From: Acidimicrobiia bacterium
GTDB taxonomy: Bacteria > Actinomycetota > Acidimicrobiia > UBA2766
DNA length: 64,000 nt
Assembly: GCA_019695375.1 (NCBI GenBank)
Contig: JAIBAC010000001.1
Coordinates: 25,638 to 89,637, forward strand
Direction of reading: 5' to 3'
The notes below the pieces were generated by a model. It did no database searches. It saw only the letters and a program-made list of their open reading frames with translations, and had not been told where the DNA came from. Of the stretch, positions 12,806 to 51,902 are shown one piece after another; within the stretch, counting starts at the first letter, position 1; each line of letters opens with the position of its first letter. Both the position numbers and the translations under genes were made by a program.

Positions 12806-12906
12806 ACGGCCAGCCTACGGGGCGATCGCGACGCTGCAGACGCCGGCCGCGTCGTCCACCTCCGAGGCGTGGCGGCGACGGGTGGCGGTTACACTCGCAG
12901 GTCGTT

Positions 12907-28947: not shown

Positions 28948-29450
28948 CGGATCCGGAGCCGACCGGCGAGTCCGGCATGACTCTCGTCGAGATCATGATC
29001 GCGATCGTGATCATGAGCGTGGTCGTCGTCGGGGTCCTCGCCCTGCTGGCGACGCTCGTGCGCGCCTCGGACCTGTCCAACCGCAAGACCGAGGCCGAGA
29101 CCACCGCGATCGCGGCAGCGGACTACCTCAAGGCCTCCGACTTCGACTACAGCGGCGCCGGCGGCTGCGAAGCCCACTACGCGACCGAGCTCGCCGCGTA
29201 CACGACCGTCTACCCGACCCCCGGGTTCACGACGTCGGTGCACGTGTACCGCGGCGACGCCGCCAGCATCAGCGCGGGAGCCGCAATCGCGACTCCCGAC
29301 GCGGGGACGCCCTGCCTCGACGGCAGCACTCCGGTCCTGCGGCTGTCGGTGGAGGTGACCGCCGACGACGGCGCGGTGTCGCGCTCTCAGGACGTCGTGC
29401 TGCGCTGCGACCCGGCAGCCGCCAAGGCCGCAGGAGGGACGTGCCTGTGA
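28944..29450 (+). CDS. prepilin-type minor pilin (N-terminal cleavage/methylation domain)
   Basis: Leader ...GESG followed by MTLVEIMIAIVIMSVVVVGVLALL class III signal; ATGA overlap with pilC. Confidence 0.75.
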   Translation: MTDPEPTGESGMTLVEIMIAIVIMSVVVVGVLALLATLVRASDLSNRKTEAETTAIAAADYLKASDFDYSGAGGCEAHYATELAAYTTVYPTPGFTTSVHVYRGDAASISAGAAIATPDAGTPCLDGSTPVLRLSVEVTADDGAVSRSQDVVLRCDPAAAKAAGGTCL

Positions 29451-30169
29451 GCGGTGATCACCGCGGCGGGGACCACGGGTTCACCCTGATCGAGGTGATG
29501 CTCACCGTCGTGCTCCTGTCGGTCGTGATGGGCGCGCTCGCGACCGCGGCGATCGTGTTCCTGCGCAACATCAACGAGACGCAGGCACGCCTCTACGTCG
29601 CGAACTCGCGCTCGCTCACGTCGCGCTACCTCGTGGGCGACATCCAATCCGCCGCCGTCTACGACCCCGCCTTCACGCCGACGCCGTGGACGGGGGGCAG
29701 TGACGGGACGGTCGTGTGGCCCGGTGCGCCCGCCACGCCGGCCGCGCCGAGCACCGACCCGGTGACGGCCACGAACGGGGTCGTGGAGTGCGACGCGACG
29801 CCGCGGACGGTCCTGACCGCCTACCACTACGACATCTTCCCCGGCGACGACCCAGACGTGGCGTCGAAGGACCGCGCCGTCAAGGTCGAATACACGGTGG
29901 TCGCGCCGCCGCCCGGTGACGACTGCCAGCTGGTGCGCACGAAGTGGGCGGTCACGGACACTGGTGGAACGTACGACTGGGCGGCACTGGAGCAGAACGC
30001 CGTCGCGCACGAGCTCCGCGTCGACGGCACCACACCGATGGTCACCACCACGGACCAGGGCGGTGGTCGCTGGCAGGTACACGTGAACCTGCAGCCGAAG
30101 TCATCGGAGGGCGTCGAGTACGCCTACGACTTGTGGGCCAAGCGCCGAGTGGACACCATCGTGCCATGA
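29441..30169 (+). CDS. prepilin-type minor pilin
   Basis: GDHG/FTLIEVMLTVVLLSVVMGALA prepilin motif; GTG start 29441 (alt GTG 29447) after AGGAGG. Confidence 0.75.
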   Translation: MPVSGDHRGGDHGFTLIEVMLTVVLLSVVMGALATAAIVFLRNINETQARLYVANSRSLTSRYLVGDIQSAAVYDPAFTPTPWTGGSDGTVVWPGAPATPAAPSTDPVTATNGVVECDATPRTVLTAYHYDIFPGDDPDVASKDRAVKVEYTVVAPPPGDDCQLVRTKWAVTDTGGTYDWAALEQNAVAHELRVDGTTPMVTTTDQGGGRWQVHVNLQPKSSEGVEYAYDLWAKRRVDTIVP

Positions 30170-32040: not shown

Positions 32041-32046
32041 CGCCCG

Positions 32047-32174
32047 GCCCCACGCCAAACGCGGGCGGAATCGCCCGCGAGCACGTCAGACCACCCGCGT
32101 TTGGGGGACGGACCCACGCCAAACGCGGGCGGAATCGCCCGCGAGCACGCCAGACCACCCGCGTTTGGGGAGGT
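32047..32174. repeat. two tandem ~64-bp copies (1-2 mismatches) each containing 11-bp inverted repeat CCAAACGCGGG/CCCGCGTTTGG and nested GCGGGCG-GAAT-CGCCCGC hairpin
   Basis: Direct reading; located between pilX-like stop and major pilin start. Confidence 0.9.
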
Positions 32175-32301
32175 GGCCGCCCCGCGCGTTGGCGGGCGGG
32201 ATGGCAGGATCTGGGGCTCTCATGTAGAAATGCGTGACTGTTGGGTAGTGGGCTGAGTTACCTGGATCAGGAAGTCGACCCTTACTGGGGGAGAACCGGC
32301 G

Positions 32302-32673
32302 ATGAAGAGACAGTTCGAGCGGCTGCACGCCGCGCGGGTGGGCGAGGGTGAAGGCGGGTTCACCCTGATCGAGCTCCTGATAGTTATCGTGATCCTCGGC
32401 ATCCTCGCCGCCGTCGTCGTCTTCTCGGTGAGCGGCATCACCGACACCGGCGACCAGGCAGCCTGCACGTCGAGCCGCTCCGCGATCGAGACCGGCCTCG
32501 AGGCCGCCTACGCGAAGTCGAACCCGAAGGCTTACCCGGTGGACCTCGCGGCACTGCAGGCTTCGGGAATGGTTGGCGAGCTCAACGGTGTGACTGCGAC
32601 GTGGACGGTCAACGCCGGGCCTCCGCAGACGATCAGCGGACTGACCGTCAGCACCCCGACCACCACCTGCTGA
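32302..32673 (+). CDS. pilA: type IV major pilin (prepilin with G/FTLIELL cleavage-methylation site)
   Basis: 123 aa; leader MKRQFERLHAARVGEGEGG then FTLIELLIVIVILGILAAVV; GGAGA RBS. Confidence 0.85.
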   Translation: MKRQFERLHAARVGEGEGGFTLIELLIVIVILGILAAVVVFSVSGITDTGDQAACTSSRSAIETGLEAAYAKSNPKAYPVDLAALQASGMVGELNGVTATWTVNAGPPQTISGLTVSTPTTTC

Positions 32674-32699
32674 ACCAGCAGGCAGACGACACTCCATCC

Positions 32700-32724
32700 G
32701 TACCCCGGCCCGCGGCCGGGGTAC
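32700..32724. terminator. GC-rich hairpin (11-bp stem GTACCCCGGCC/GGCCGGGGTAC, 3-nt loop) between convergent pilA and pilT
   Basis: Perfect inverted repeat read from sequence 27 bp after pilA stop. Confidence 0.5.
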
Positions 32725-32730
32725 GGCGCG

Positions 32731-33744
32731 TCAGGGGAGGCCGAGCACCTGACGTTCGGACTCCTCGAGGGTGACCATCCCCTCCGCACGGCTCGAGCGG
32801 ATCACGTTGTGGATCTGGTTGGTCTTGGCCTCGCGGATCAGGTTTCGCACCGGGTCGGTGGCGATCAGGACCTCGAACGCCGCCACACGACCCCCGGTGG
32901 GGCTGGGATGGAGGCGCTGGTGGACGACAGCGAGCAGCGCGGCACTGAGCTGGGCGCGCACCTGGTTCTGATGATCGCCACCGAACGCGTCGATGATGCG
33001 GTCCACCGCCTGTGCCGTGTCGTTGGTGTGAAGGGTTGCGAACACCAGGTGGCCGGTCTCGGCGATGGTCAACGCCGACGAGATCGACTCGAGGTCGCGC
33101 ATCTCACCGACGAGGACGACATCGGGATCCTCACGCAGCACGGACCGCAACGCCATGTGGAAGTCGGGGGTGTCGGTGCCTACCTCACGCTGGTCGACGA
33201 CGGCGTGCTTGTGGGTGAACACGTACTCGATGGGGTCCTCGAGCGTGATCACGTGGCACGCCCGCGTCTGGTTGATGCGCTCGATCAGCGACGCGATCGT
33301 CGTCGACTTGCCCGACCCGGTGGGACCCGTCACGATCACGAGGCCCGTGCTCTTCTCGGTCAACGCCACCACAGCGGGAGGGACACCGAGCTGCTCCGGT
33401 GCCGGTATCACCGCGGGCAGGTGCCGCAGGGCCACCGCCCAGTGCCCCTTCTGACGGAAGACGTTCCCGCGGAAGCGTGCACGACCGGTCCAGTCGAACG
33501 CGAAGTCCGCCGTGTTGTGCTCGGCGAGCTGAGCGCGGTGCTCCTCCCCGACGAGCGCCTCGACACACGCGTCGACCTCGACGTCGGTGAGCGGTTCCGC
33601 TCTCATCGTGCGGAGCGCTCCGTCGACGCGGCCACGCGGTGGTGTGCCCACGGACAGGAGCAGGTCGGAGCCGCCGATCGCGACGAGCTGGTCGAGGAGC
33701 CACTCGAGCAGAGTGACCGCCGCCTGCGTCTCGTAGGCCTCCAT
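32731..33744 (-). CDS. pilT: twitching-motility / pilus retraction ATPase PilT
   Basis: Walker A GPTGSGKSTT, Asp box, His box (GHLVFATLHTN), AIRNLIRE-like motif (PVRNLIREAK); start at MEAYE 33744. Confidence 0.85.
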   Translation of the reverse strand: MEAYETQAAVTLLEWLLDQLVAIGGSDLLLSVGTPPRGRVDGALRTMRAEPLTDVEVDACVEALVGEEHRAQLAEHNTADFAFDWTGRARFRGNVFRQKGHWAVALRHLPAVIPAPEQLGVPPAVVALTEKSTGLVIVTGPTGSGKSTTIASLIERINQTRACHVITLEDPIEYVFTHKHAVVDQREVGTDTPDFHMALRSVLREDPDVVLVGEMRDLESISSALTIAETGHLVFATLHTNDTAQAVDRIIDAFGGDHQNQVRAQLSAALLAVVHQRLHPSPTGGRVAAFEVLIATDPVRNLIREAKTNQIHNVIRSSRAEGMVTLEESERQVLGLP

Positions 33745-33801
33745 GGCGTGACACGGTACACGCACTGCGACAACACCAAGTCGCGGTCATAGCCTCAGGG
33801 G

Positions 33802-34953
33802 GTGCGATTCGCGTCCCGCCTCTGTCTCGCGCCCGAGGACCCGGCCGAGATCACCTCGGCGGCGGCCTCGATGCGCTCCGAGCTCGGCGAGCCCGCGACA
33901 CTCGTCGCCGTGTTCGCCTCCGCCCGATTCGGTGACGATCTCGAGACGATCACCGGAGCCGTCGCCGGCGCCACCGGTGCGGATGTGCTCTTCGGCTGCA
34001 CCGCAGGCGGGGTCGTCGGCGGCGCCATCGAGATCGAGCACGCGCCCGCCGTGTCGCTGTGGGCGGCGGCGATGCCCGGTGTCGAGATCGACGCACGCCA
34101 TGTGGAGCATCCCGGCTCGGACGCAGCGGCTTTCGTGAACATGCCCTCGATCGGCGACGACACTGCGGCGCTCATCCTCGTCGCCGACCCGTTCACGTTC
34201 CCCTCGGACCTGTTCTGCACGACGATCGACCACGAACACCCCCGACTCACCTGCGTCGGCGGCCTCGCCTCGGGCGGCCGGCAGGCCGGCGAGACACGCC
34301 TCGTGCTCGACGGCTCGATCCACGACACGGGAGCGGTCGCGGTGGCGCTGTCGGGTGCGGTCGCCGTGCGCACCCTGGTGAGCCAGGGCTGCCGCCCGAT
34401 CGGGCGATCACTGCTCGTCACCGCCGGTGAGCGCAACCGGATGCTCGAGCTCGGCGGTCGCCCCGCTGTCGACCGGCTCGTCGAGACCGTCGCCGAGCTC
34501 GCCCCCGAGGACCGCGAGCTCATCGAGGGCGGGCTCCACATCGGGCGCGTGGTGGACGAGCACAAGGTCGAGTTCGGGCGCGGCGACTTCCTGATCCGCA
34601 ACGTGGTGGGTATCGAGCGCGACTCCGGCGCAGTCGCGATCGGTGACTCCGTCGAGGTCGGCTCGACCGTTCAGTTCCACGTGCGCGACGCCGTGACAGC
34701 CGACGAGGACCTCGCCGCGCTGTTGGCAGAGATCGGCGACGCAGAGACGGAGACCGGGGTGCTGGTCTTCACGTGCAACGGCCGCGGGCGGCGCTTCTTC
34801 GGGATGCCCGACCACGACGCCGCCGCGATACGGGCACTCCTCGGGACCAGCGACGTCGGTGGCTTCTTCTGCGCAGGCGAGATCGGCCCGGTGGGAGGCG
34901 TCAACCACCTCCACGGATACACCGCAGCCGTCGCAGTCCTGTCCGCGCCGTGA
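33802..34953 (+). CDS. FIST-domain sensory protein (FIST_N + FIST_C), no output domain
   Basis: 383 aa; C-terminal GFFCAGEIGP motif typical of FIST_C. Confidence 0.65.
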   Translation: MRFASRLCLAPEDPAEITSAAASMRSELGEPATLVAVFASARFGDDLETITGAVAGATGADVLFGCTAGGVVGGAIEIEHAPAVSLWAAAMPGVEIDARHVEHPGSDAAAFVNMPSIGDDTAALILVADPFTFPSDLFCTTIDHEHPRLTCVGGLASGGRQAGETRLVLDGSIHDTGAVAVALSGAVAVRTLVSQGCRPIGRSLLVTAGERNRMLELGGRPAVDRLVETVAELAPEDRELIEGGLHIGRVVDEHKVEFGRGDFLIRNVVGIERDSGAVAIGDSVEVGSTVQFHVRDAVTADEDLAALLAEIGDAETETGVLVFTCNGRGRRFFGMPDHDAAAIRALLGTSDVGGFFCAGEIGPVGGVNHLHGYTAAVAVLSAP

Positions 34954-35910
34954 TCAGGCCGGGGTGCGGCTGCGGCTCGCCAGCCAGGCACCGGCGATCA
35001 CGAGCCCACAACCGGCGACCGCTATCGGCACGGCGGTCTCGCCGTTGACGAACACACCGAGGCCGAGAGCGACCACAGGCACGAAGTAGATCCCGATCGA
35101 ACCGCGGTCGGCGCCGACGCGGCCAACGAGCGAGACCATCGCCACGAACGCGACGCCGCTGCCCAGCACGCCGAGCGGCACCATCGCCACGAGGCTTGCG
35201 GCCGTGAAGGTCGAGTCGCCCACCGACCAGATCGCGCCGGGTACGGAGACAGCGAGCGCCACCAGCTGGCCGCGCAGGACGACCGGCAACGTCCCGTACC
35301 GCTGCTGCAGCGGCGCGGCGACGGTCGCACCGATCGCGTAGCAGACGACGGCGACGATGATCAGCGCGACGCCGAGTGGGCTCGCGTCAGCGCCCACCAC
35401 TTCGGGAAGGGAGATGCAGACGATCCCTGCAAAGCCGACGCCGATGCCGATCGCCTGCGTGCGGCCGGGGGGGCGCCTGGTGGTGATCGCCACCACCACG
35501 GCGGCCACGACCGGCATGGCACCGTTGATCATCCCCGCCACCGACGTCGCCACCCACTGCTCGGCGATCGGGAAGAGCACGAACGGGACGGCCATCCACA
35601 CGACACCGAGGACCGCGATCTCGCGCCACGCCGCCCGCGGCACCGGCGCTCGTGCCTTGGGCAGCACCGCAAGGGTCAGCGCACCCAGCAGGATCCGCAG
35701 GAACGCGACGAGGCCGGGGCGCAACCCCTCGATCCCGATCGCGATGAACAGGAACGACGAACCCCAGATCGAGGCGACGAGAGCGACGAGACCCCACTCC
35801 GTGGGGCCGAACGCGCCCTGATGGGTGCCGAGCGCCCCGTGGGGTGCACGATCGGTCTCTCTGGCCCGGCCCTCGCCTCGCTTCTCACCCCCACCTGAGG
35901 GCGCTGTCAC
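34954..35910 (-). CDS. EamA/DMT-family transporter
   Basis: 10-TM profile, two EamA repeats; GTG start 35910 overlapping etf stop (GTGA). Confidence 0.7.
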   Translation of the reverse strand: MTAPSGGGEKRGEGRARETDRAPHGALGTHQGAFGPTEWGLVALVASIWGSSFLFIAIGIEGLRPGLVAFLRILLGALTLAVLPKARAPVPRAAWREIAVLGVVWMAVPFVLFPIAEQWVATSVAGMINGAMPVVAAVVVAITTRRPPGRTQAIGIGVGFAGIVCISLPEVVGADASPLGVALIIVAVVCYAIGATVAAPLQQRYGTLPVVLRGQLVALAVSVPGAIWSVGDSTFTAASLVAMVPLGVLGSGVAFVAMVSLVGRVGADRGSIGIYFVPVVALGLGVFVNGETAVPIAVAGCGLVIAGAWLASRSRTPA

Positions 35911-37685
35911 TCGAGCGCCCTTGCGAGCAGCGGGACGGCGTCGTGCCAGTCGGCGACGATGCCGACGTCGCAGTAGCCGAAGACCGGTGCGGCCGCATCG
36001 GTGTTGATGGCGAGGACCGAGCCAGCCGCGCGGAATCCCGACGAGTGGTTGAACTTCCCGCTCGCCCCGATGCTGACGAGCAGGCGCGGCGCCACCGCGA
36101 TCCCGGTGATGCCGATCTGGCGACTCCGTGGCAGCCAGCCCCGGTCTGTCACCTTGCGCGTGGCACCGAGCTCGGCACCTAGCACCTTGACGAGGCGGTC
36201 GAGCTCGCCGTACTCGTCGGGATCGACGCCGACACCGACGCAAACCACGACGTGAGCGAGCGTGAGGGCTTCACCGTCGTCCTCGACCGTGTGCGCGACG
36301 ACGCGGACGCGTCCGCTGCCGGCGACGCCCACGGTCTGCACCGCCGGGAACGACGCGGCCACTGGGCCGTCGGCGGCGAGCACACCGGGACGCACCGTCG
36401 CCATCTGCACCGAGGACGACGACGTGATCGCGGCGACGAGCGATCCGCCGAACGCGGGCTTCCACGCGACGAGGCGGCCATCGGCGCCGACGTCGAGCTC
36501 GACGGCATCGCCGGTGAGGCCGTGCCCACCTGCCGCCGCGACCCGCGACGCTATCTCACGTCCCCGAGCGGTGCTCGGCGCTATGACACCCCAGGGGCAG
36601 GCATCGGCGACCAGCTGGGAGATCGCAGCGGCGTAGTCCTCGTCGGATGCGACCGGGTCGGCGTCGAGCACCGTGACCGCGCCGACACCGGACGGCACCG
36701 CCCCCAGATCGGCACCCAACGACACGACGCGTGCGCCGAGGCCGAGCACGCGAGCGAGCCGCGCGGCCTCCTGGCCGAGCTCGTGAGCCAGCCGCGGGCG
36801 GGTCGGGTCAACCAACGCCCAGACCTCACGACCACCGCCGACGTCCACGTGGTCGACGTCGGCCGTCCGCGGCGCGAAACCGTCGGTGACCGCGGCGTCG
36901 AGGGCACCGCGTCGTGCGAGTGCTCCGACCGCCGACTCGACCTGCGACGCCGCGTCGCCGGTGAGCACCAACGGGTCGCGCTCGACGGCCAGCGATCGGG
37001 TCGCTCCCACCGAGGTCGGGGACGCGGCGGCACCCCACGGGCCGTCACCGAGGTCCGCTGCGGTCACGGTCCAGATCCGGTCGGCGGAGACGGCAGCACG
37101 CTCGTCCGGGAAGGCCTTCGCAGGCGCCGTGAGCCGCTCTGCGCAGCTCAACACGGCCGGCAGCTCACCTTCGATGCGGCGGTGGCCGTCGTCGGTCTCG
37201 CACACTGCCGCGAACGTGGCAGCCATCAGGTCGATGTCGAGCTCACGCACCGGCCCTGCGAACGGCCACCCGAGCAGCTCGGCGAGCTCGGGGCCGACCT
37301 GCCCTGTGTCGGAATCCACCGAGTTCTTGCCCACGAGCACGAGGTCGAGGTCGCCGATCTGGTGCAGCAGGCGGGTGAGCGCCGTCGCGGTCGCCAGGGT
37401 GTCAGAACCCGCGAACACCCCGTCGCTGAGGAGCACCCCGCGATCGGCGCCACATGCGATCGCCTCACGCAGGCAGTCCTCGGCCGAGGGGGGACCCATC
37501 GTCACGACGACGACCTCGGCGTCCGCATCGGTGGCGAGCTCGACCGCCTCGGCAACCGCGCGCCGGCAGTACGGGTTGAGCTCGAGCTCGACACCATCGC
37601 GTCTCACGCGGCCGTCGGGTCCCAGCGTCATCTCCTCGAAGCGGGGTACCTGCTTCACGAGAGCAGCGATACGGGCGGCGGTCAC
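35907..37685 (-). CDS. etfBA: fused electron transfer flavoprotein beta-alpha (EtfB-EtfA single polypeptide, 592 aa)
   Basis: N-terminal EtfB-like (RIAALVKQVP...), C-terminal EtfA FAD-binding region (SIGASGKFNHSSGFRAAGSVLAINTD). Confidence 0.75.
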   Translation of the reverse strand: MTAARIAALVKQVPRFEEMTLGPDGRVRRDGVELELNPYCRRAVAEAVELATDADAEVVVVTMGPPSAEDCLREAIACGADRGVLLSDGVFAGSDTLATATALTRLLHQIGDLDLVLVGKNSVDSDTGQVGPELAELLGWPFAGPVRELDIDLMAATFAAVCETDDGHRRIEGELPAVLSCAERLTAPAKAFPDERAAVSADRIWTVTAADLGDGPWGAAASPTSVGATRSLAVERDPLVLTGDAASQVESAVGALARRGALDAAVTDGFAPRTADVDHVDVGGGREVWALVDPTRPRLAHELGQEAARLARVLGLGARVVSLGADLGAVPSGVGAVTVLDADPVASDEDYAAAISQLVADACPWGVIAPSTARGREIASRVAAAGGHGLTGDAVELDVGADGRLVAWKPAFGGSLVAAITSSSSVQMATVRPGVLAADGPVAASFPAVQTVGVAGSGRVRVVAHTVEDDGEALTLAHVVVCVGVGVDPDEYGELDRLVKVLGAELGATRKVTDRGWLPRSRQIGITGIAVAPRLLVSIGASGKFNHSSGFRAAGSVLAINTDAAAPVFGYCDVGIVADWHDAVPLLARALE

Positions 37686-37799
37686 TGGCGGCTCCCAGGA
37701 TTACCGGGCGGAAACGTCGCCCGAGAGTATCTGCGCCACGAGCACCGACCCAGCCGGAAAGAGCGCAGAATCCCGGCATCTGCGCGCCAGACTGTTGCG

Positions 37800-43918: not shown

Positions 43919-44710
43919 TCAGGCGTCGAGCGCTTCGCGGGCCATGGCGGGGTCGTCGGTGATCACCGCCGCCACCCCCGCTCGTGCGACGCCGGCGACA
44001 GCGGCGGCGTCGTTGAGGGTCCACGGTGCGACCCAGCATCCTGCCTCGCGCGCCGCGGACACGACTTCGGCTGCCCCGGCCGCCTCCAACGTCACGAGGT
44101 CCGGGTGGAGTCCGCGGCAGCCCGCGTCGACTGCAGCCGGCAGCGCCTCCGACGGTGCCCAACCGAGCGTGAGCAGCGCGACGGCGACCTCGGGCGCAGC
44201 CGCCACCGCGGCCCGCGCGAAGTCGATCGAGAACGACGACAGGAAGACACGGTCGGTCTCACCACGTGCGGCCACGAGGCGGGCGACGTCGCCGGCGAGG
44301 AGGGCGTCGTCGGCCTCGGCCTTGATCTCGACGTTGACCACCAGGCCTGCACCAGCGGCGAAGTCGAGGACGGATTCGAGGACCGGGACACCCACACCGC
44401 GGCCGCGGAAGGGGTGGTCGCCCGCGGGGCCGGCGAACGCCCAGCCTGCGTCCACGTTCGCGAGCCGGCTCGCCGTGGTCTCGGACACGCGCCCCGTCAC
44501 CCCTGTCGTGCGCTCCAGGGTCGGGTCGTGGATGACGACGATCGCACCGTCGGAGCTGCGGTGCACGTCGAGCTCGAAGCCGTCGGCACCGGCCGCCGCG
44601 GCCGCCTCGAAGCCGGCCATCGTGTTCTCCGGCGCCAGGCGGGGTGCACCGCGGTGCCCGACCACGAGCGGCCGCCCATACCCGTTGAGCAGGGCAAACA
44701 TGGACGACAA
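43919..44710 (-). CDS. glycerophosphodiester phosphodiesterase
   Basis: VVGHRGAP...ENTMAGF, ELDVH motifs of GDPD family. Confidence 0.8.
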   Translation of the reverse strand: MSSMFALLNGYGRPLVVGHRGAPRLAPENTMAGFEAAAAAGADGFELDVHRSSDGAIVVIHDPTLERTTGVTGRVSETTASRLANVDAGWAFAGPAGDHPFRGRGVGVPVLESVLDFAAGAGLVVNVEIKAEADDALLAGDVARLVAARGETDRVFLSSFSIDFARAAVAAAPEVAVALLTLGWAPSEALPAAVDAGCRGLHPDLVTLEAAGAAEVVSAAREAGCWVAPWTLNDAAAVAGVARAGVAAVITDDPAMAREALDA

Positions 44711-44850
44711 GCTACATCAACGGGGTTCGTGGGGCTCGCGGGCAGGATCTCGTGCGCGCGCTTGCGAAAGTTCACGAAGCGTTGACACTGGCGTCACCCG
44801 GCACTACGATCCCCAATGTTGCGCTCCACCCCACCAGGTGGCCACTGCCT

Positions 44851-44943: not shown

Positions 44944-45246
44944 TTGCAGACCTTGAACCGTTCAATTCAGGACCACGACGTCGTCGAGGAGCGCGAGTGG
45001 CGCGACTTCGCCGCTTGCCGTGACACAGACCCCGATCTCTTCTTCCCGGTCGGCACGACCGGAGTCGCGCTCGAGCAGATCAAGGCGTCCAAGCGCATCT
45101 GCAAGACGTGCGAGGTCCGTGCGGAGTGCCTTCAGTTCGCTCTGGCCACCAACCAGGAGTCGGGCGTCTGGGGTGGCACGAGCGAGGAGGAGCGCCGTGC
45201 GCTGCGCAAGTCCTGGCTCGCTCGCCAGCAGCGCCGCTCGGCCTGA
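44944..45246 (+). CDS. whiB1: WhiB-family Fe-S transcription factor (WhiB1-like)
   Basis: Cys pattern C-x24-C-x2-C-x5-C, FFPVG, GVWGG, ERRAL motifs; TTG start 9 nt after AGGAGG. Confidence 0.8.
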   Translation: MQTLNRSIQDHDVVEEREWRDFAACRDTDPDLFFPVGTTGVALEQIKASKRICKTCEVRAECLQFALATNQESGVWGGTSEEERRALRKSWLARQQRRSA

Positions 45247-45256: not shown

Positions 45257-46786
45257 CTAGAGGCCTGACGCCCCCTCGAAGCCGTCGTCGACCGGGTCGA
45301 CCGCCAGCGCGTCGACCTGGGGGCTGAACGGCACGGGGAACGTCAACGTCACGCACCCCCCGGCGGCCTCGGCGCCGGCGCGGACGTCCATCTCCCCGTT
45401 GAGCTCGCCTGCGACGAGCGTTCGGACGATCTTGAGCCCGAGGCCGCCCTGGCCCTCCAGCTCGAAGCCGTCGGGGAACCCGCTGCCGTTGTCCTCGACC
45501 TCGACGCGCATCCAGCCGTCCTCGCGGCGCAGGCGAACCCGCACCCACCACGGCGCCACCTCGTCCTCGTCGCTGTCGAGGCCGGCGAAGCCGTGTTCGA
45601 CGGCGTTCTGCAGCAACTCGGTCAACACGACCGCGAGCGGCGTCGCCACCTCGGCGGGCAGGATCCCCGCCTCACCGTCGATCGCGAAGCGGATGCGACG
45701 CTCCCCGACGAGGCCTTCCTCGACGTCGCGCAGCAGCGGGTACAGGATGCTGTTGAACGGCAGCCAACCTCCTGCCTCCCGCGAGAGCATCTCGTGGACG
45801 AGCGCGATCGAGCGGATGCGGCGCACCGACTGCGCGAGCGCCTCCTGCGCCTCGTCGGAGTCCGTGCGCCGCGCCTGGAGCTGCAGCAGCGACGCGATGG
45901 TCTGCAGGTTGTTCTTCACCCGGTGGTGGATCTCCCTGATCGCCGCCTCCTTCGAGAGGAGGAGGCGGTCGCGGCGACGCAGCTCGGACACGTCACGCAC
46001 GAGCACGAGGCAGCCCGTCGACTGCCCGCCACGGATCAGGGGCAGGCCGAGCACGAGGATCGAGACGTCACCGTCCTCGAACTCGTCGCTCGCGGGCACG
46101 CCTGTCGCGACCGCCGAGTGCACGGCCGTGTCCGACACCCCCAGCTCCCGAAAAGTCACGTCGTCCATCGAACCGAACACGCCGAGACGGTGGAACGCGC
46201 TCGTCGCGTTCGGCGAACGGAACTTGATGCGCAGGTCGGCATCGAGGCGCACGAAGCCGTCACCGGCACGGACGGTGTCGGTGAGCACCGGCCCGCCGCT
46301 GCGGTACGGGAACGTGCCCTCGGAGATCATGATCGCCATGTCGCGCCCGGCGTCGGCGTAGGCCCTTTCCTGTGGGCTGGCGCGGCGCCGGTCCTCCCGC
46401 CAGCGCTCGTGTGAGAGAACCGCGACGAGAACGCCGTCGCGACGCACCGGGACCGCGTAGACGTCGATCGGACTGGGCCGGTGAGGCGGCGTCATCACCC
46501 CGACGGTCATCTCGCCGGTCTCCCACGCCTTCGCGACCCAGGGCCGTTCGTCAGGGTCGTACATGCGCCCGACGGGGTCCTCGAGGTAGGTGGTCTCGCT
46601 GTTGGTGGGCCGCTGGTGCGCGAGGACCACGAACGCGTCGCTCTCGGCTGCGGGCACGAACAGGAGGAGATCGGAGAAGTGCAGGTCGGCGAGCAGCTCC
46701 CACTCGGCGACGAGGTGCTGGAGATGGGAGATGTGGTACGGCGGCAGCCGGACGTGCTGACGTACGAGCTCGGCGATCGTGGACAC
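45257..46786 (-). CDS. pdtaS: sensor histidine kinase PdtaS-like (GAF-PAS-HisKA_2-HATPase)
   Basis: EIHHRVKNNLQ HisKA_2 motif, N-term STIAELVRQHVRLPP like PdtaS; GTG start 46786. Confidence 0.8.
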   Translation of the reverse strand: MSTIAELVRQHVRLPPYHISHLQHLVAEWELLADLHFSDLLLFVPAAESDAFVVLAHQRPTNSETTYLEDPVGRMYDPDERPWVAKAWETGEMTVGVMTPPHRPSPIDVYAVPVRRDGVLVAVLSHERWREDRRRASPQERAYADAGRDMAIMISEGTFPYRSGGPVLTDTVRAGDGFVRLDADLRIKFRSPNATSAFHRLGVFGSMDDVTFRELGVSDTAVHSAVATGVPASDEFEDGDVSILVLGLPLIRGGQSTGCLVLVRDVSELRRRDRLLLSKEAAIREIHHRVKNNLQTIASLLQLQARRTDSDEAQEALAQSVRRIRSIALVHEMLSREAGGWLPFNSILYPLLRDVEEGLVGERRIRFAIDGEAGILPAEVATPLAVVLTELLQNAVEHGFAGLDSDEDEVAPWWVRVRLRREDGWMRVEVEDNGSGFPDGFELEGQGGLGLKIVRTLVAGELNGEMDVRAGAEAAGGCVTLTFPVPFSPQVDALAVDPVDDGFEGASGL

Positions 46787-46898
46787 GCGCGGATCGTACC
46801 CGCGCCCGCACTCCTTTCGGCTGTGGTGCGGCCCGTGGCCTGCCGATGAGTCAGTCGTGGAGCACGAGGAGTCACAGGCAGGTCCTCCGGGACGGACG

Positions 46899-47744
46899 AT
46901 GATGGTGGTGGGTGCTCCGCCATCGGTGGCCGAGGTCGTGGACGACCGATGCAGGTCGCGGGCGGTCGTCGTGCGGCGCCGCCCGGCGACGGCGCTGGAC
47001 TGCGAGCGCGATCTAGACTTCGACGCCCCGTCGGTCCTCGTGCTCGGTGACTTCTTCGGTTCCGAGCCTGCGGCTCTGGTGCGACGGCTCAAGGCACCTC
47101 CGCACCGGGCGTTCCTGCCCGTGCTGGCGCTCGTCGACGGACCCGATCAGCGCCGTGACGTGTGGGCAGCAGGTGCTGACCTCGCACTCGAGCTGCCGTG
47201 TGCCGCCGACGACGTAGCGGCCGCCGTGGACGGACTTCTCGGCCGGTGCGAGCAGATAGAGCGTCAGCTCGGGGTCGACCTCGCCACCGGACTTCTCGCC
47301 CAGGAGGCCTTCCGCGACCGCCTCGACGAGGCGATCCGTTTCGTGCGCCGCTACCACGTGCCTGGCTGCGCAGGGGTGCTCGCCCTCGCGCCCGCCGACA
47401 CCCCACCCGCAGGTATGGCCGTGCCGTACACGTTGCGGTGGGCGGCATCGATCGCACGCGCATCGATGCGCGAGGTCGACGCTCTCGGTGTCGCAGGCAC
47501 CGACGCCATCGGCGCCGTGATGCTCGGCACGACGCTCGGCGGCGGGATCGTGGCGATGCGCCGCCTCCTCGAGCACATCCAGACCGCCACGGGCGCCGCG
47601 CACGAGGGCCTCCCACGCTTGACCCCCGCCACGGCGGCGGTGACGTCGTTCGGGAACTCCGGTGTCGAGCGCCTCATGGAGCGGTTCCACCGTTCGATCT
47701 CGTGCGCCCGCGAGCGGGAGCCGGGCACTCTCGTGATCCTCTGA
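46899..47744 (+). CDS. pseudo-receiver plus degenerate GGDEF-like domain protein (paralog 1)
   Basis: Domain order and motifs parallel to downstream paralog; GGDEF position reads GTDAI. Confidence 0.5.
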   Translation: MMVVGAPPSVAEVVDDRCRSRAVVVRRRPATALDCERDLDFDAPSVLVLGDFFGSEPAALVRRLKAPPHRAFLPVLALVDGPDQRRDVWAAGADLALELPCAADDVAAAVDGLLGRCEQIERQLGVDLATGLLAQEAFRDRLDEAIRFVRRYHVPGCAGVLALAPADTPPAGMAVPYTLRWAASIARASMREVDALGVAGTDAIGAVMLGTTLGGGIVAMRRLLEHIQTATGAAHEGLPRLTPATAAVTSFGNSGVERLMERFHRSISCAREREPGTLVIL

Positions 47745-47901
47745 CGGCGCAAGCGGCTGCAGGCCGCGCGGCCGTTGCCGGAACGGCGCTAGGGTCGTGC
47801 TACGGGGACCGAAGTTCGTCATCCGCTCAAGGACGCCGCCGAAGTGGCGATCATCTTGGGAGACGCGAAGACCGGTCGACCGACCGGGGGAAGAGGATCG
47901 A

Positions 47902-48801
47902 ATGTCGGGCGCAGGTGCCAACATCAAGAGCGGCCCCCGCCGGGTGCTGCTCGCCGCCGACTCGGCCCAGGACAGCTCCCAGTTCGCAAAAGCGCTCGAG
48001 CAGCTCGGCTGCCAGGTCTACATGTCGTCGCCGTCCAAGGTCGAGGAACTCGAGCAGCTCCTCGACCTGCTCGGACCGTCGGTCGTCGTGCTCACGGGCA
48101 GCTTCGACACCGACTTCCTCTCGGTCTACCGCCGCATCAAGACGCCGCCGCACCGGGCTCTGCTGCCGGTCATCTGCACGATCGGAGCCGGCGAGAGCAA
48201 GCTCGCGCTCATCCAGGCCGGTGTCGATGCCGTCATCGCCGAGCCGTGGGAGGCCGACGAGGTCAAGGCCGCTGTCGGCGGCATCCTCGAACGCGCTGCG
48301 ATCGTCGACCAGCACAAGGAGGTCGACGACCTCACAGGTGCTCTCACACCGTCGGCGACGAACGAACGCGTCGACTACGAGGTCTCGCGTGCGCGCCGCT
48401 ACCGCCGCCAGGGCTGCCTGTCGCTCGTCGACCTCGACAACTACGACAAGGTCCGCGAGGGTGTCGGCGAGCTCGCTGCCGACGCGGGAATGCGCCGCTT
48501 CAGCCAGATCGTGCGCCATGAGCTGCGCGAGACCGACATGCTCGGCCGCCTCGACGGCGACCGCTTCGCCGTGATCATGCCCGACACCGACCTGACCGGT
48601 GCGGTGCAGGCGATGCGCCGGGTGCTCGCGGTGATCGGATGCGCGACCGTCGACGTGCCCGGCGGACAGAAGGTGACCCTGGCGGCATCGGCGGGTGTCG
48701 GCGCGTTCGGCTCCGACGGACCCGAGGCGATCCTGTCACGGGTGTCCGGCGCCATCGACCGCGCCAAAGCCGCCGGCGGCGGCGCCCTCTTCACCGCCTG
48801 A
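47902..48801 (+). CDS. pseudo-receiver plus degenerate GGDEF domain protein (paralog 2)
   Basis: DDLTGAL...SLVDLDNYDKV...RLDGDRFAVIMPDT matches GGDEF fold with GGDEF replaced by DGDRF; N-terminal receiver-like fold lacking canonical Asp pocket. Confidence 0.6.
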   Translation: MSGAGANIKSGPRRVLLAADSAQDSSQFAKALEQLGCQVYMSSPSKVEELEQLLDLLGPSVVVLTGSFDTDFLSVYRRIKTPPHRALLPVICTIGAGESKLALIQAGVDAVIAEPWEADEVKAAVGGILERAAIVDQHKEVDDLTGALTPSATNERVDYEVSRARRYRRQGCLSLVDLDNYDKVREGVGELAADAGMRRFSQIVRHELRETDMLGRLDGDRFAVIMPDTDLTGAVQAMRRVLAVIGCATVDVPGGQKVTLAASAGVGAFGSDGPEAILSRVSGAIDRAKAAGGGALFTA

Positions 48802-48843: not shown

Positions 48844-49338
48844 TCAGTCCTCGAGCACAGCGGCAGCGGTGAGCTCGGCGAGCTCGGCCTCGAGGTCGTC
48901 ACCTGCATCGGCTGAACGGGCAGCGAGGAAACCGAAGAGCAGGCCTGAGAGCGCGAATCCGCCCCAGAGCACACCGAGCGGCTTCTTGATCTCCCCACGG
49001 GCGGCAGCGGCGAACAGCGCGACAGCGTCGAGGCCGTCGACGACCATCGCGGCCTCGTACCACCCGCGTGCGTTGCCGTGGCGGCCGGCGAGGATCTGGC
49101 CCGCTCCGATGATCGCATCGCGGCTCCCGAAGAGGCGCATGGCGAGCCGGCCGCCGGGATCGAGGTCCGCGCCGAGGATCTTGCCTGCGATCGAAGGAGC
49201 GAGGAACGAGGCGACTCCGACACCGATGCGAGTGGCCGATACACCGACCTTCCAGCCCGTGCGCTCCACCGCCATCTGCGCCTCCGTGTCCGCCGGTTCG
49301 CCGACCCGCCGACCTCGACCGGCTGGATCGGGGCGCAC
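48844..49338 (-). CDS. small hydrophobic protein of unknown function
   Basis: ORF with GC3 bias and 3-4 predicted TM segments; start uncertain (ATG 49275 possible). Confidence 0.4.
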   Translation of the reverse strand: MRPDPAGRGRRVGEPADTEAQMAVERTGWKVGVSATRIGVGVASFLAPSIAGKILGADLDPGGRLAMRLFGSRDAIIGAGQILAGRHGNARGWYEAAMVVDGLDAVALFAAAARGEIKKPLGVLWGGFALSGLLFGFLAARSADAGDDLEAELAELTAAAVLED

Positions 49339-49368: not shown

Positions 49369-50589
49369 TCAACCGAAGAGGTGGTCGCCGATCCGCAACA
49401 GGCCTCCGAGGTCGGCGATGTCCACCTCGAACTGGGGTACACGCGCGATGACGTCGGCGTTGCCGGTGGACAGCTCCGCCTGCATCTCGGCCTCGCGCTT
49501 GGCGACGACCGCGAAGTTCTCGAAGTTGTCGGCGATGGTGCGCAGGATCCCTGCCGTGCGCGCCTCGTCGCCGAAGGCGACCGGGTCGAGGGCGTCGAGG
49601 CGCTTGGCCGTCTCACCGGCGTTGGCGACGTCGTCGAGACGTTGCGCGACGGCCGCTGCCGCGGGGTCGTGGAGGAAGTCCGGCAGCGCGCGGTTCAGCA
49701 CCAGCGCGCCGAGGTCGAAGTCGAGCTCCTCGAGCTTGGTGCAGAAGAACTCCGCCTCGGCGAGCGGTGCCGACTCCAGGGTGCTCACGACGCAGAACGT
49801 CGTGCGGCGGTCGTGCAGCAGCTTCTCGACCTCGCGGGCGCGGGTCACGAAGCCCTCCTGCATCGACTGGAAGTTGAGGAAGAACTCTCCGAGACGGCGC
49901 ATGAAGTCTCCGCCGAGAAGGCGGTCGGCCATGCGGTAGAACGGCCGCGCGGCGAAGTCCAGCGCGCGCACGCCGCGTTTGCCGCCGACCTTGTACGGAA
50001 GCGTGAGCACACGCAGGAACCAGCCGCCGAAGAAGTCCGCCATCCGCTCCGGCGCCTCCAGGAAGTCGATGGCGTTGCGCGTGGGAGGCGTGTCGATGAC
50101 GATGAGGTCGTACTCGCCGGAGCGGTGCAGCTCGTAGAGGCGCTCCATCGCGATGTACTCGTGGGCGTTGATGAAGCGGCCGGTGATGTTGTGGTACAGC
50201 GGGTTCTCGAGGATCTTGTACGCCGTCTCCTCGTCCGGCGCGTACCGGTGCACGAGGTCGTCCCAGCTCCGTTTGGTGTCGAGCATCGCCGCGAACATGC
50301 GCCCGCGCGGCTCCACGCCCGCCTCACGGAACTTCTCAGTCGGCACCTCGCGCGCGACGTTGCCGATGCCCTCGAGACCGAGCGCCGTGGCGAGGCGGCG
50401 TGCGGGGTCGACCGTGAGCACGAGGACGGAACCGCCGAGCCGAGCCGCCGCCACTGCGGCCGCGGCCGCAGCCGCCGACGTCTTGCCGACCCCGCCGGAG
50501 CCGCAGAAGATCACCATCTCCTTGGACGCGAGAAGGTGCTCGAACGACGTGTGCACCGACGTGTCGTCGCGCCTGCGGGTCCGGCTCAC
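49369..50589 (-). CDS. ArsA-family (Get3-like) ATPase
   Basis: P-loop CGSGGVGKT, DTPPT motif; paired with second ArsA-like gene. Confidence 0.75.
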   Translation of the reverse strand: MSRTRRRDDTSVHTSFEHLLASKEMVIFCGSGGVGKTSAAAAAAAVAAARLGGSVLVLTVDPARRLATALGLEGIGNVAREVPTEKFREAGVEPRGRMFAAMLDTKRSWDDLVHRYAPDEETAYKILENPLYHNITGRFINAHEYIAMERLYELHRSGEYDLIVIDTPPTRNAIDFLEAPERMADFFGGWFLRVLTLPYKVGGKRGVRALDFAARPFYRMADRLLGGDFMRRLGEFFLNFQSMQEGFVTRAREVEKLLHDRRTTFCVVSTLESAPLAEAEFFCTKLEELDFDLGALVLNRALPDFLHDPAAAAVAQRLDDVANAGETAKRLDALDPVAFGDEARTAGILRTIADNFENFAVVAKREAEMQAELSTGNADVIARVPQFEVDIADLGGLLRIGDHLFG

Positions 50590-51581
50590 AGGCCCATCTC
50601 CGCTGCCAGAGCGTCTGCCACGAGGCGTGTCGCCCGCTTGCCGTGGCTGCGCGTGAACAGATACGGGACGTACATCATCGGGAGCGGCACCTCCGATCGG
50701 AGGCGCCGGATGTGCTCAACCCGCGTGCGCCGCAGCGTCACTGCGAGGCGGGCGGCTTCGAGGACCGGCTCGAGCGGAGCGCCGACCACCGATTCGGCTG
50801 CTTCGACGGCGTCGGCGTCACCGAGGCGATCGAACGTGTCTTCCTCGGCCGTCGTGAACAGCTCGGGCAGCACACGGTTGACCACGACGCCTGCGAGGCG
50901 GACGTCGAGTGCCTCCGTCGCGTGGTAGAGCTCGATCGTCTCCGAAACCGGCATCTCCTCGGGCGTCGCCACGATCAGCAGCGCCGTGCGGTTCGGATCG
51001 GCGAGCACCTCGCGCATCCAATCGGTCTGGGTGCGCACCATCCCGACCTCGAACAGTTCGTTGATCGCGGCCGGGGCGTCGAGCTGGCCGACGATGCGCC
51101 CCGTCGGGGCGGCGTCGACGACGATCAGGTCCCACTTGAAGTCGACACCTTCGGTCAGCGTCGCCTCGTACGCGATCTTGCCGACCGTGAGGATCTCCTT
51201 GACCCCCGGCGCCGCGTTGGCGACGAACTCGAAGATCGACGAGAGCGGCCCGATGCGGCTCATCATCCCCATCTTGAGGAAGATCTGGAGGTACTCGCGC
51301 AGTGAGTCCTCGGTGTTCATCGTCATCGACCACAGTCCGGGACGGATCTCGACGGGGTCGTAACCCACCCGCGGGTGCTCGAAGAAGTCGGTCAGGTTGC
51401 CCTTGGCGTCGACCTCGACCATGAGCGTGCGCTTGCCGAGGCTCGCCGCCAGCTCACCGATGGCAGCCGCGATGGTCGACTTGCCGGTGCCGCCCTTGCC
51501 GGTGACGAAGAGGAGCTGGCGACCGAGCAGATCGAGCGCAGACGTGGGGTCAGCGCTCTGTGCCTCGGGGACGGCGTTCAT
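50586..51581 (-). CDS. ArsA-family ATPase (second paralog)
   Basis: P-loop GKGGTGKST, VVDAAPTG motif; ATGA overlap with downstream paralog. Confidence 0.75.
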   Translation of the reverse strand: MNAVPEAQSADPTSALDLLGRQLLFVTGKGGTGKSTIAAAIGELAASLGKRTLMVEVDAKGNLTDFFEHPRVGYDPVEIRPGLWSMTMNTEDSLREYLQIFLKMGMMSRIGPLSSIFEFVANAAPGVKEILTVGKIAYEATLTEGVDFKWDLIVVDAAPTGRIVGQLDAPAAINELFEVGMVRTQTDWMREVLADPNRTALLIVATPEEMPVSETIELYHATEALDVRLAGVVVNRVLPELFTTAEEDTFDRLGDADAVEAAESVVGAPLEPVLEAARLAVTLRRTRVEHIRRLRSEVPLPMMYVPYLFTRSHGKRATRLVADALAAEMGL

Positions 51582-51632: not shown

Positions 51633-51869
51633 TCACGCCATGAAACCGATACCGCCGGCCTTCGAGCCGTCCTCGACCTCGACGTAGGTGAGCTTGTCGG
51701 TGGGCACGACGACCGTCTTGCCCTTGGAGTCTGTGACCCGCACGAACTTGTCGGCGGCGCTGATCGCGCTGGTAAGCGACTCGAGCACGTCACCGGCTTC
51801 GCCTTCGACCTCGAGCTCGAGCTCCTTGGCGGAGAAAACCACGCCGAGATGAACCTTGGTCGTCGCCAT
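51633..51869 (-). CDS. DUF3107-family small protein
   Basis: 78 aa MATTKVHLGVVFSAKELELE... typical of actinobacterial DUF3107 found next to ArsA pair. Confidence 0.6.
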   Translation of the reverse strand: MATTKVHLGVVFSAKELELEVEGEAGDVLESLTSAISAADKFVRVTDSKGKTVVVPTDKLTYVEVEDGSKAGGIGFMA

Positions 51870-51902
51870 CGTCGAAAGCCTCTCAGGTCTGCGGGGTCGG
51901 TC

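Follow-up and report, generated by a model that had tools for sequence, protein, structure and literature searches.

Two adjacent genes, here designated P1 and P2, lie divergently from the histidine kinase gene pdtaS in a 64-kb stretch of Acidimicrobiia DNA (the window), and each encodes a receiver-like domain followed by a degenerate GGDEF domain. This arrangement raises the question of what such proteins would do beside PdtaS, and an earlier note on this DNA had proposed three roles, namely alternative partners of the kinase, c-di-GMP receptors, or scaffolds. A degenerate active site (A-site) together with an intact inhibitory site (I-site) marks the c-di-GMP receptor in PopA and SgmT (PMC3509222, PMC10333796), and in CbrR, a protein with a variant active-site motif, mutation of the I-site abolished c-di-GMP binding (PMC8779298). 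PdtaS itself was reported to bind c-di-GMP through its GAF domain with a KD of 0.33 uM (bioRxiv 10.1101/615575; FASEB J 2021, cited in PMC10519070), and this binding is disputed (bioRxiv 10.1101/2025.05.18.654591). In this work, the residues, predicted folds, genomic context and distribution of P1 and P2 were analyzed, and the proposed roles were weighed against the resulting evidence.

Gene content and organization

P1 and P2 are encoded on the same strand and both diverge from pdtaS (Table 1), confirming the description of tandem paralogs in the earlier note. The kinase is a genuine PdtaS, matching the M. tuberculosis protein (2YKF) with E=5e-43 and displaying the Pfam domains GAF_PdtaS (1e-35), HisKA_2 (6e-23) and HATPase_c (3e-13). 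The host is an Acidimicrobiia MAG and not a mycobacterium. No ANTAR domain was found in P1 or P2, and PdtaR must be encoded elsewhere. With GC3 values of 0.83 and 0.87, respectively, and dN/dS well below 1, P1 and P2 are real genes. An in-frame GTG at 46857 matches the annotated starts of P1 orthologs, and its use would add 14 aa to P1.

Table 1. Coordinates of the genes, intergenic regions and sequence motifs of the locus within the window.
Feature	Position	Strand	Description
P1	46899-47744	+	281 aa; pseudo-receiver ~1-124, strongly degenerate GGDEF-like domain ~125-281
P2	47902-48801	+	299 aa; pseudo-receiver 13-138, degenerate GGDEF 141-296
pdtaS	45257-46786	-	Soluble histidine kinase: GAF_PdtaS, PAS-like region, HisKA_2, HATPase_c; GTG start 46786-46784
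whiB-family gene	44944-45246 (start approximate)	+	Flanks pdtaS; Pfam Whib E=1e-24
Divergent intergenic region pdtaS/P1	46787-46898		112 bp; 70 bp with P1 start at GTG 46857
P1-P2 spacer	47745-47901		157 bp; holds conserved element CTCAAG-N15-GGCGATCA at 47826-47853
P1 I-site RxxD, R191-E-V-D194	47469-47480	+	Counterpart of the canonical-cyclase RxxD in the alignment
P1 former active-site motif, G200-T-D-A-I204	47496-47510	+	At the place of GGDEF
P2 I-site, R209-E-T-D212	48526-48537	+	PleD R359-D362 in residue-by-residue alignment
P2 partner Arg, R240	48619-48621	+	PleD R390
P2 degenerate active-site motif, D218-G-D-R-F222	48553-48567	+	PleD G368-G-E-E-F372

Domain composition and predicted structure

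P1 and P2 share 34% identity over 238 aa (BLASTP, E=1e-34), and their alignment becomes full-length once orthologs are included. Residues 1-43 of P1 are unaligned in the pairwise BLAST, and a decayed or frameshifted N-terminus was considered and discarded, as elements beta1-alpha1-beta2-alpha2 are present in both the multiple alignment and the AlphaFold (AF2) model. The domain searches suggested in the earlier note matched GGDEF models in P2 only (Pfam E=2e-18, 67 bits versus a threshold of 23.8; TIGR00254 E=2e-23; PleD model, P2 13-293 on model positions 156-449), with no Pfam match of any kind for P1 at E<=10, and Response_reg was matched by neither protein at that same cutoff. A phmmer search with a canonical REC sequence detected similarity to receivers in P2 (E=2e-6) and in P1 (E=4e-3).

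The AF2 models (pLDDT 85.6 for P1 and 84.8 for P2) predict for both proteins a receiver of (beta-alpha)5 topology and, after it, a GGDEF fold, the receiver elements being in the order b1-a1-b2-a2-b3-a3-b4-a4-b5-a5. Foldseek searches of the PDB returned PleD, WspR and DgcR as the best matches over the full length of both proteins, with E values of 1e-22 to 1e-19 for P2 and ~3e-15 for P1; the predicted fold of P1 fits GGDEF structures such as 3ign (TMt 0.79). Residues 167-175 of P1 are disordered in its model, at the place of the DxD/FK/N substrate loop. Taken together, sequence identity, AF2 models and Foldseek matches bear out the shared architecture that had been noticed, a pseudo-receiver followed by a degenerate GGDEF domain in each paralog.

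Degeneration of the phosphorylation and active sites

The receiver and I-site positions were compared in an alignment of the family with four canonical REC-GGDEF proteins. P1 and P2 depart from the canonical residues at all five signature positions of the receiver, in agreement with the earlier reading that the receiver lacks the canonical Asp pocket: where an acidic pair is expected after beta1, P2 orthologs have AD, VG, GN or AL and P1 has GA or GI; T, A or G stands in place of the acceptor Asp after beta3; the position of the T/S after beta4 holds I, A, S or V, the T/S being kept in one aligned ortholog alone; and E, H, P, L or R occupies the position of the Lys after beta5, preceding the conserved Pro. 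Across the family, none of the signature residues is conserved. In some orthologs an Asp is found one position past the canonical acceptor site, a position that is not conserved either (G in the P2 of the window, E/N in other P2 proteins, and G/S/E/N in some P1 proteins).

The motifs read previously as DGDRF in P2 and GTDAI in P1 proved exact; all aligned P2 orthologs keep xGDRF, and both paralogs show the PleD spacing of six residues from the RxxD Asp to the start of the motif. Alignment of PleD to P2 gave the correspondences D327 to D177, K332 to D182, N335 to R185, H340 to E190, D344 to D194, K442 to K289 and R446 to G293. Of the GTP-binding residues, K332, N335 and R446 are replaced (D, R and G) and D344 and K442 are kept; the metal ligand D327 is also kept, and the substrate-site residues still present in P2 are D177, D179, D194 and K289. 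In P1 the whole DxDxFK..N segment is gone, and the metal-binding DxD upstream of the motif is lost (ALAP). Judging from these residues, P1 and P2 are both likely to be catalytically inactive, as the earlier note had supposed, given the degenerate motifs and the replaced GTP contacts.

Retention of the c-di-GMP inhibitory site

The comparison with PleD that had been proposed as a check thus returned degenerate active-site residues together with intact I-site residues. All 19 family sequences and the four canonical cyclases share the I-site triad R209/D212/R240 (P2 numbering; R359/D362/R390 in PleD) without exception, and its residues are among the only 8 columns that show no variation in P1, P2 and the four canonical REC-GGDEF proteins. 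R163, which corresponds to the cross-linking Arg R313 of PleD, is kept in the aligned P2 orthologs and is offset by one residue in P1. Five residues separate RxxD from the motif in both P2 (R209-ETD212...D218GDRF) and P1 (R191-EVD194...G200TDAI). Both proteins hence combine the degenerate A-site and intact RxxD I-site of the PopA/SgmT type. RxxD is common among GGDEF domains, so its retention is suggestive rather than diagnostic. The earlier note had made no mention of the retained triad.

Distribution and evolution of the family

Word-indexed single-protein and profile searches, together with a full HMMER search of 1.84 billion representatives, delimited a family of ~20 protein clusters from four GTDB species, all of them Acidimicrobiia MAGs. 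In those searches family members scored >260 bits and generic REC-GGDEF proteins <200 bits, a gap that supports the narrowness of the family. MAGs carrying the locus include STL-ACT9 (JAXLRM01), SJ788 (JADZDR01), UBA2766 (DEIU01) and ERP124720_co1_197. In the reading favored here, P1 and P2 descend from a conventional diguanylate cyclase with REC-GGDEF architecture, of the WspR/DgcR/PleD type. An exhaustive profile search for Rosetta-stone fusions of the family to PdtaS-like domains found none; two kinase-fusion candidates (P0041 and P0042, 860 aa) turned out to be ordinary tandem REC-GGDEF proteins with canonical DD/D/K residues and GGEEF.

The ORFs are intact in 8 distinct genomes displaying 60-90% identity over concatenated PdtaS, ArsA1 and ArsA2. 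P1 is present in 4 of the 8 distinct loci, with an intact ORF in every one (8 protein clusters), and is missing from the other 4 lineages. Purifying selection acts on both genes, with dN/dS of 0.06-0.10 for P2 and 0.21-0.39 for P1. Compared with loci L006, L008 and L007, the proteins of the window are 93, 87 and 69% identical for P2 and 74, 54 and 39% for P1, which evolves 2-4x faster; its KxPPHRxxLP loop and I-site are almost wholly conserved. P2 is the ancestral, slowly evolving copy, and P1 is a fast-evolving tandem duplicate.

Linkage to pdtaS

In all 8 distinct loci, P2 or the P1-P2 pair diverges from pdtaS at a distance of 70-280 bp. The genes on the far side of P2 differ among loci (SKI, ThiC plus a 493-aa ORF, orf164 and others), indicating repeated rearrangements downstream of P2 and never between P2 and pdtaS; moreover, whiB orthologs (98-114 aa) adjoin pdtaS in all related loci examined. 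At distant pdtaS loci, arsA1-arsA2-pdtaS are contiguous, arsA2 abuts pdtaS with a gap of at most 128 bp in 34 of 41, and a GGDEF-like gene was found in 0 of 58 loci with at least 1 kb of upstream sequence, in a search whose positive control worked. The contiguity of these genes at distant loci and the absence of a GGDEF gene there show that a P2-type gene entered a contiguous arsA1-arsA2-pdtaS backbone, on the opposite strand, in a lineage-specific insertion. The linkage that the earlier note asked about consequently holds in every related locus and is confined to one narrow clade; as this clade comprises four GTDB species representatives, the constant adjacency could partly reflect shared ancestry.

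The position of M. tuberculosis W43, the reported c-di-GMP-stacking Trp, is F in the PdtaS of the window and in 7 of the 8 clade members. A loss of this Trp in genomes carrying P2, with P2 taking over sensing, was considered and rejected as there is no clade-specific change: distant PdtaS proteins are equally variable (F 24, Y 22, L 13, W 12, H 6 and others 3 among 80 without P2).

Comparison with known c-di-GMP systems

Proteins with a dead GGDEF domain and an intact I-site are an established class of c-di-GMP receptors, and the protein type is in itself unsurprising. New aspects are the existence of a very small, undescribed family in which receiver and cyclase are both dead, an old tandem duplication that gave rise to one fast-diverging copy, and a precise insertion into the conserved arsA1-arsA2-pdtaS cluster beside a kinase whose c-di-GMP regulation has been reported and disputed. 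No paper linking a GGDEF gene to pdtaS was found in the literature searched; a link between c-di-GMP and PdtaS has, however, already been reported (bioRxiv 10.1101/615575).

PopA of Caulobacter likewise derives from a PleD/WspR-type cyclase; however, it is an alphaproteobacterial REC-REC-GGDEF protein, whereas P1 and P2 have a single receiver devoid of phosphorylation residues, are 281-299 aa long, occur only in Acidimicrobiia and form a tandem pair in half of the lineages, beside pdtaS. They are thus not PopA orthologs. PleD of Caulobacter ranks with the best matches in both sequence and structure, P2 2-296 aligning to PleD 143-449, a segment that comprises the non-phosphorylated D2 pseudo-receiver and the GGDEF domain and whose I-site residues R359, D362, R390 and R313 are all matched in P2. 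Conversely, the cyclase of PleD (GGEEF) is active and under the control of a phosphorylatable D1 domain, and P2 lacks D1 as well as E371, K332, N335 and R446. WspR and DgcR, which are matched over their full length by Foldseek, have the two-domain architecture and the length (~300 aa) of P1 and P2, but they are phosphorylation-activated enzymes with canonical receivers and GGEEF. CbrR of Campylobacter jejuni, to which a weak NCBIfam match was obtained (E=3e-9), is also a response-regulator-type GGDEF protein with a variant motif, and its I-site binds c-di-GMP (PMC8779298); unlike P1 and P2, it has two receivers with a predicted acceptor Asp and may keep trace cyclase activity. Finally, kinases are placed under c-di-GMP control via a dead GGDEF domain (GGGVF with RHPD) in SgmT of Myxococcus and via a pseudo-receiver in ShkA of Caulobacter (PMC3509222, PMC10333796). 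SgmT and ShkA carry the sensing domain as a fusion to the kinase, whereas P1 and P2 are separate polypeptides encoded next to the kinase gene, and their interaction with the kinase is putative.

Proposed role and alternative explanations

Among the three roles originally proposed, that of c-di-GMP receptor or scaffold fits best with the invariant I-site triad, and that of phosphotransfer partner does not. As phosphorylation and active sites are lost and the c-di-GMP pocket is kept, a c-di-GMP sensor role is predicted, and on residue and model evidence we give about an even chance to P1 and P2 being PopA-like dead-GGDEF receptors or adaptors in which phosphorylation control and catalysis have been lost. 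c-di-GMP, probably as an intercalated dimer, would bind the I-site of P1 and P2, and its occupancy would alter the packing of the GGDEF-like domain on the pseudo-receiver or cross-link two protomers, either two of P2 or, in genomes with both paralogs, one of each; the pseudo-receiver would act as a protein-protein interaction surface. Because a P2-type gene is kept directly upstream of pdtaS in every carrier genome, PdtaS, a kinase with a reported response to c-di-GMP, is the leading, if speculative, candidate for the target or co-regulated partner of P2, and coupling of P1 and P2 to PdtaS appears plausible from gene order. The pseudo-receiver could, again speculatively, dock on the DHp domain of PdtaS as a non-phosphorylatable decoy or modulator. 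We consider rather unlikely the full version of this scheme, in which P2, with P1 as heterodimer partner where present, would act in trans as a c-di-GMP sensor of the PdtaS pathway, its receiver docking on the DHp domain and I-site-bound c-di-GMP switching the docking. If such trans-acting sensing were true, it would provide independent evolutionary support for the contested c-di-GMP-PdtaS link and represent the SgmT/ShkA principle split over two polypeptides; the locus would be a natural experiment on the wiring of PdtaS signalling to c-di-GMP if the coupling is true, and another lineage-specific degenerate GGDEF receptor if it is false.

Alternatives in which P1 and P2 retain the activities of their ancestors fare worst. 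As response-regulator partners receiving phosphate from PdtaS, they would make use of the receiver fold and of their position next to an orphan kinase, and the +1 Asp of some orthologs might serve as acceptor; but with five of five signature positions non-canonical, a +1 Asp that is not conserved and is G in the P2 of the window, and Response_reg unmatched even at E<=10, this role is extremely improbable, and it was rejected on residue evidence since there is no conserved acceptor Asp. It is also very unlikely that P2 is an active, non-canonical diguanylate cyclase supplying c-di-GMP locally to PdtaS, with P1 as regulatory subunit. The GGDEF HMM score of P2 lies far over the threshold, its metal ligand D177 and acidic third motif position D220 are kept, and CbrR, likewise with a variant motif, was reported to synthesize traces of c-di-GMP (PMC8779298); nevertheless, all aligned P2 orthologs have Arg at the fourth motif position (PleD E371), H340 is replaced by E in addition to the lost phosphate and guanine contacts K332, N335 and R446, substitutions of the motif Asp/Glu inactivate WspR (cited in PMC3509222), and even the metal-binding Asp is gone from P1.

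A doubtful reading, which nonetheless deserves some weight, is that P1 and P2 are scaffolds or adaptors independent of c-di-GMP, or bind another nucleotide (e.g., GTP, in the remnant active site), their adjacency to pdtaS being an accident of one insertion and implying no coupling. Nucleotide binding in the old A-site of P2 is conceivable given the substrate-site residues it keeps, the confinement of the family to one narrow clade makes conserved synteny weak evidence, and the scans revealed neither a shared regulatory RNA nor a shared promoter. Against this, the I-site triad is wholly invariant in two paralog lineages that are ~30% identical, and the rearrangements that occurred downstream of P2 have spared the interval to pdtaS. 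The receptor reading we favor concerns both paralogs, and it is distinctly unlikely that P1 is instead a decaying duplicate heading to a pseudogene, with P2 alone functional: the faster evolution of P1, its dN/dS of up to 0.39, its absence from half of the lineages and its lack of a Pfam signature would fit decay, but its ORF is intact in all four carrier lineages, its dN/dS is still well under 1, its fold is predicted with confidence, and its I-site and KxPPHRxxLP loop have scarcely changed.

Intergenic elements and signalling genes of the window

No active cyclase or phosphodiesterase was found within the window, a result that weighs against the receptor reading. The sole canonical receiver of the window is a stand-alone 130-aa ORF (12425-12814). 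Searches of the intergenic regions yielded no c-di-GMP riboswitch or other Rfam family, and scans of the pdtaS-P1 and P1-P2 spacers no sigma-70-like sites or terminators. A short element between pdtaS and P1, CTGCCGATG (46840-46848), recurs with single-base variants in the four tandem loci. CTCAAG-N15-GGCGATCA is found upstream of P2 in three tandem loci (the window, L006 and L008) and in two single-copy loci (L010 and L004), and its occurrence in both types of locus suggests that P2 retains its own 5' control region. A promoter-like site is located at 44782-44810, by the whiB-family gene.

Domain architecture and residue conservation of P1 and P2

Two genes, P1 (281 aa) and P2 (299 aa), lie divergently from the histidine kinase gene pdtaS, and were described in an earlier note as tandem paralogs coupling a pseudo-receiver to a degenerate GGDEF domain; this observation is confirmed, and its interpretation is partly supported. 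At the BLASTP level both proteins share 34% identity over 238 residues (E=1e-34), and their alignment becomes full-length once orthologs are included; the two are paralogs. Domain searches recovered P2 well over threshold with GGDEF models (Pfam, 67 bits; TIGR00254, 83 bits), whereas P1 had no Pfam match even at E<=10. Using a full-length PleD model, residues 13-293 of P2 were aligned to PleD 156-449, which comprises the non-phosphorylated second receiver and the GGDEF domain. The common architecture was further upheld by AlphaFold models obtained from family alignments (pLDDT 84.8 and 85.6), both displaying a GGDEF fold C-terminal to a (beta-alpha)5 receiver, and by Foldseek, whose top PDB matches for both proteins were PleD, WspR and DgcR over the full length. 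The two ORFs display coding-type GC3 values (0.83 and 0.87), and dN/dS against two relatives was 0.06 and 0.10 for P2, 0.21 and 0.39 for P1, and 0.08 and 0.12 for pdtaS; both paralogs are under purifying selection. P1 may start further upstream than called (region 46857-46898): its frame contains a GTG at 46857 (VEHEESQAGPPGRT...), in register with the ATG starts (MEE.../MEH...) annotated for the P1 orthologs in the related loci L008 and L007, and P1 would then be 295 aa long instead of 281 aa.

Receiver residues were scored against four canonical REC-GGDEF proteins harboring DD, D, T/S, K and GGEEF, and by residue-by-residue alignment to PleD. The acidic pair after beta1 reads AD, VG, GN or AL in P2 orthologs and GA or GI in P1; across the family, the acceptor Asp after beta3 is replaced by T, A or G, the T/S after beta4 by I, A or V (S in one ortholog), and the Lys before the conserved Pro (beta5) by E, H, P, L or R. 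Since not one signature position is conserved, the domain is, judging by its residues, a pseudo-receiver devoid of the canonical Asp pocket, as had been proposed.

Alignment to PleD likewise revealed a degenerate cyclase active site. In P2, PleD D327, D344 and K442 are kept (D177, D194, K289), and K332, N335, H340 and R446 are lost (D182, R185, E190, G293); PleD G368-G-E-E-F372 corresponds to D218-G-D-R-F222, with Arg at the fourth motif position in all aligned P2 orthologs. The original motif readings, DGDRF in P2 and GTDAI in P1, were correct, and P1 further lacks the metal-binding DxD segment, which is disordered in its model. Conversely, the I-site (c-di-GMP inhibitory site) residues R359, D362 and R390 of PleD are matched by R209, D212 and R240 in P2 and by R191, D194 and R222 in P1. 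This triad is invariant in 19/19 family sequences and constitutes three of the eight columns still invariant after adding four canonical enzymes; P2 R163 (PleD R313) is also kept. The allosteric product-binding site is intact.

Distribution and linkage to pdtaS

The adjacent kinase is a genuine PdtaS, with GAF_PdtaS (1e-35), HisKA_2 and HATPase_c domains, and residues 1-286 matching the sensor-domain structure of Mycobacterium tuberculosis PdtaS (2YKF, E=5e-43). When 5.8 billion clustered proteins were searched with P1, with P2 and with a profile of the family, 12 P2-type and 8 P1-type clusters were recovered, below which scores fell from about 420 to 70 bits. HMMER, run exhaustively over 1.84 billion representatives, identified only four family representatives, next-ranked hits being ordinary REC-GGDEF cyclases, and no kinase-GGDEF fusion proteins. 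Only four GTDB species representatives carry the family, each an Acidimicrobiia MAG; the nearest relatives of the window (G+C about 70%) are all metagenome-assembled Acidimicrobiia.

Synteny was retained among close relatives: in 8/8 distinct loci, P2 sits directly upstream of pdtaS in divergent orientation, or is parted from it by P1 alone, and the genes beyond P2 vary from locus to locus. P1 was found in four lineages; its sequences form a single clade, with all P2 sequences as the sister group, and diverge two to four times faster. The duplication is therefore old, and P1 has either been lost repeatedly or been kept in some lineages only.

Conservation did not extend to more distant genomes. 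Eighty further pdtaS loci (40-48% identity) display a nearly contiguous arsA1-arsA2-pdtaS backbone on a single strand, the arsA2-pdtaS gap being <=128 bp in 34 of the 41 having both genes. This arrangement suggests an operon, apparently undescribed so far. No GGDEF-like ORF was detected in the 58 distant loci that extend 1 kb or more upstream, using the same HMM that, as a positive control, detects every known copy; P2 is therefore an insertion specific to this lineage, placed where arsA2 and pdtaS otherwise meet. In the window clade, the insertion splits the backbone (49369-51581 and 45257-46786).

Features of the pdtaS region and of the wider window
Feature	Position	Strand
Stand-alone canonical receiver	12425-12814	-
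tRNA gene	12907-12978
PilB-type ATPase, MshEN N-domain	25623-27539
T2SSF	27517-28944
706-aa ORF, no Pfam match	29920-32037
Prepilin-like protein	32257-32670
PilT-like ATPase	32734-33786	-
FIST-domain protein	33793-34950
ETF frame	35910-37700	-
GDPD gene	43919-44710	-
Sigma-70-like match	44782-44810	+
whiB	~44944-45246	+
pdtaS	45257-46786	-
P1	46899-47744	+
CTCAAG element	47826-47853
P2	47902-48801	+
Unannotated 164-aa ORF	48844-49338	-
arsA2 (ArsA-like ATPase)	49369-50589	-
arsA1 (ArsA-like ATPase)	50586-51581	-
DUF3107 gene	51636-51902	-

Proposed roles

Among the roles put forward previously, that of alternative phosphotransfer partners of PdtaS is excluded by the receiver residues. The role of c-di-GMP receptor or adaptor ranks first, with about an even chance of being right, because receiver and cyclase are both dead, the I-site is invariant and selection is purifying, which is the signature of PopA and SgmT, known degenerate-GGDEF c-di-GMP receptors (PMC3509222, PMC10333796). 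In a related case, CbrR, c-di-GMP is bound via the I-site of a GGDEF domain with a variant motif (PMC8779298). P1 and P2 would constitute a new, very narrowly distributed addition to the enzymatically inactive GGDEF c-di-GMP receptors.

Their placement beside pdtaS is noteworthy, and any functional tie is a candidate only. Two observations make physical or regulatory coupling with PdtaS plausible, albeit rather unlikely: the adjacency conserved within a narrow clade, and the reported binding of c-di-GMP by the GAF domain of mycobacterial PdtaS (KD 0.33 uM; bioRxiv 10.1101/615575), which has been questioned (bioRxiv 10.1101/2025.05.18.654591). No clade-specific change was found in the PdtaS residue reported to contact c-di-GMP. 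No GGDEF gene linked to pdtaS is reported in the literature searched.

Regulatory and neighboring elements

An element, CTCAAG-N15-GGCGATCA, located some 50-75 nt ahead of the P2 start, is common to three tandem loci (the window, L006 and L008) and to the single-copy loci L010 and L004. It may serve as a promoter or leader belonging to P2 itself, in which case P1 would have come to lie between pdtaS and the ancestral control region of P2. Rfam searches yielded no riboswitch or other element at the locus, and scanning of the spacers yielded no consensus promoter or terminator. Across the 4.8-kb region there is a single sigma-70-like promoter match, TTGACA-17-TACGAT, some 130 nt ahead of where whiB probably starts.

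The gene slot beyond P2 is variable: L004 has SKI there, and L003 has ThiC and a 493-aa ORF. The 164-aa ORF, convergent with P2, had no match in Pfam or NCBIfam, and its conservation is limited to the closest relatives, L006 and L008. Within the 64-kb window, neither GGDEF genes besides P1 and P2 nor a REC-ANTAR regulator were found; its sole canonical receiver is a 130-aa ORF (Response_reg, E=5e-25) adjoining a tRNA gene.

A type IV pilus/T2SS-like cluster spans 25623-34950. The MshEN region of its PilB-type ATPase harbors a tandem pair of motifs, PIGELLLKRKLV...Q and RIGEILVELGYL...L, which resemble the c-di-GMP-binding MshEN motif, hinting that the organism may use c-di-GMP. Finally, a single 597-aa stop-to-stop frame with two ETF-domain matches and ETF_alpha may represent an EtfB-EtfA gene fusion, or else two neighboring genes that share one frame.
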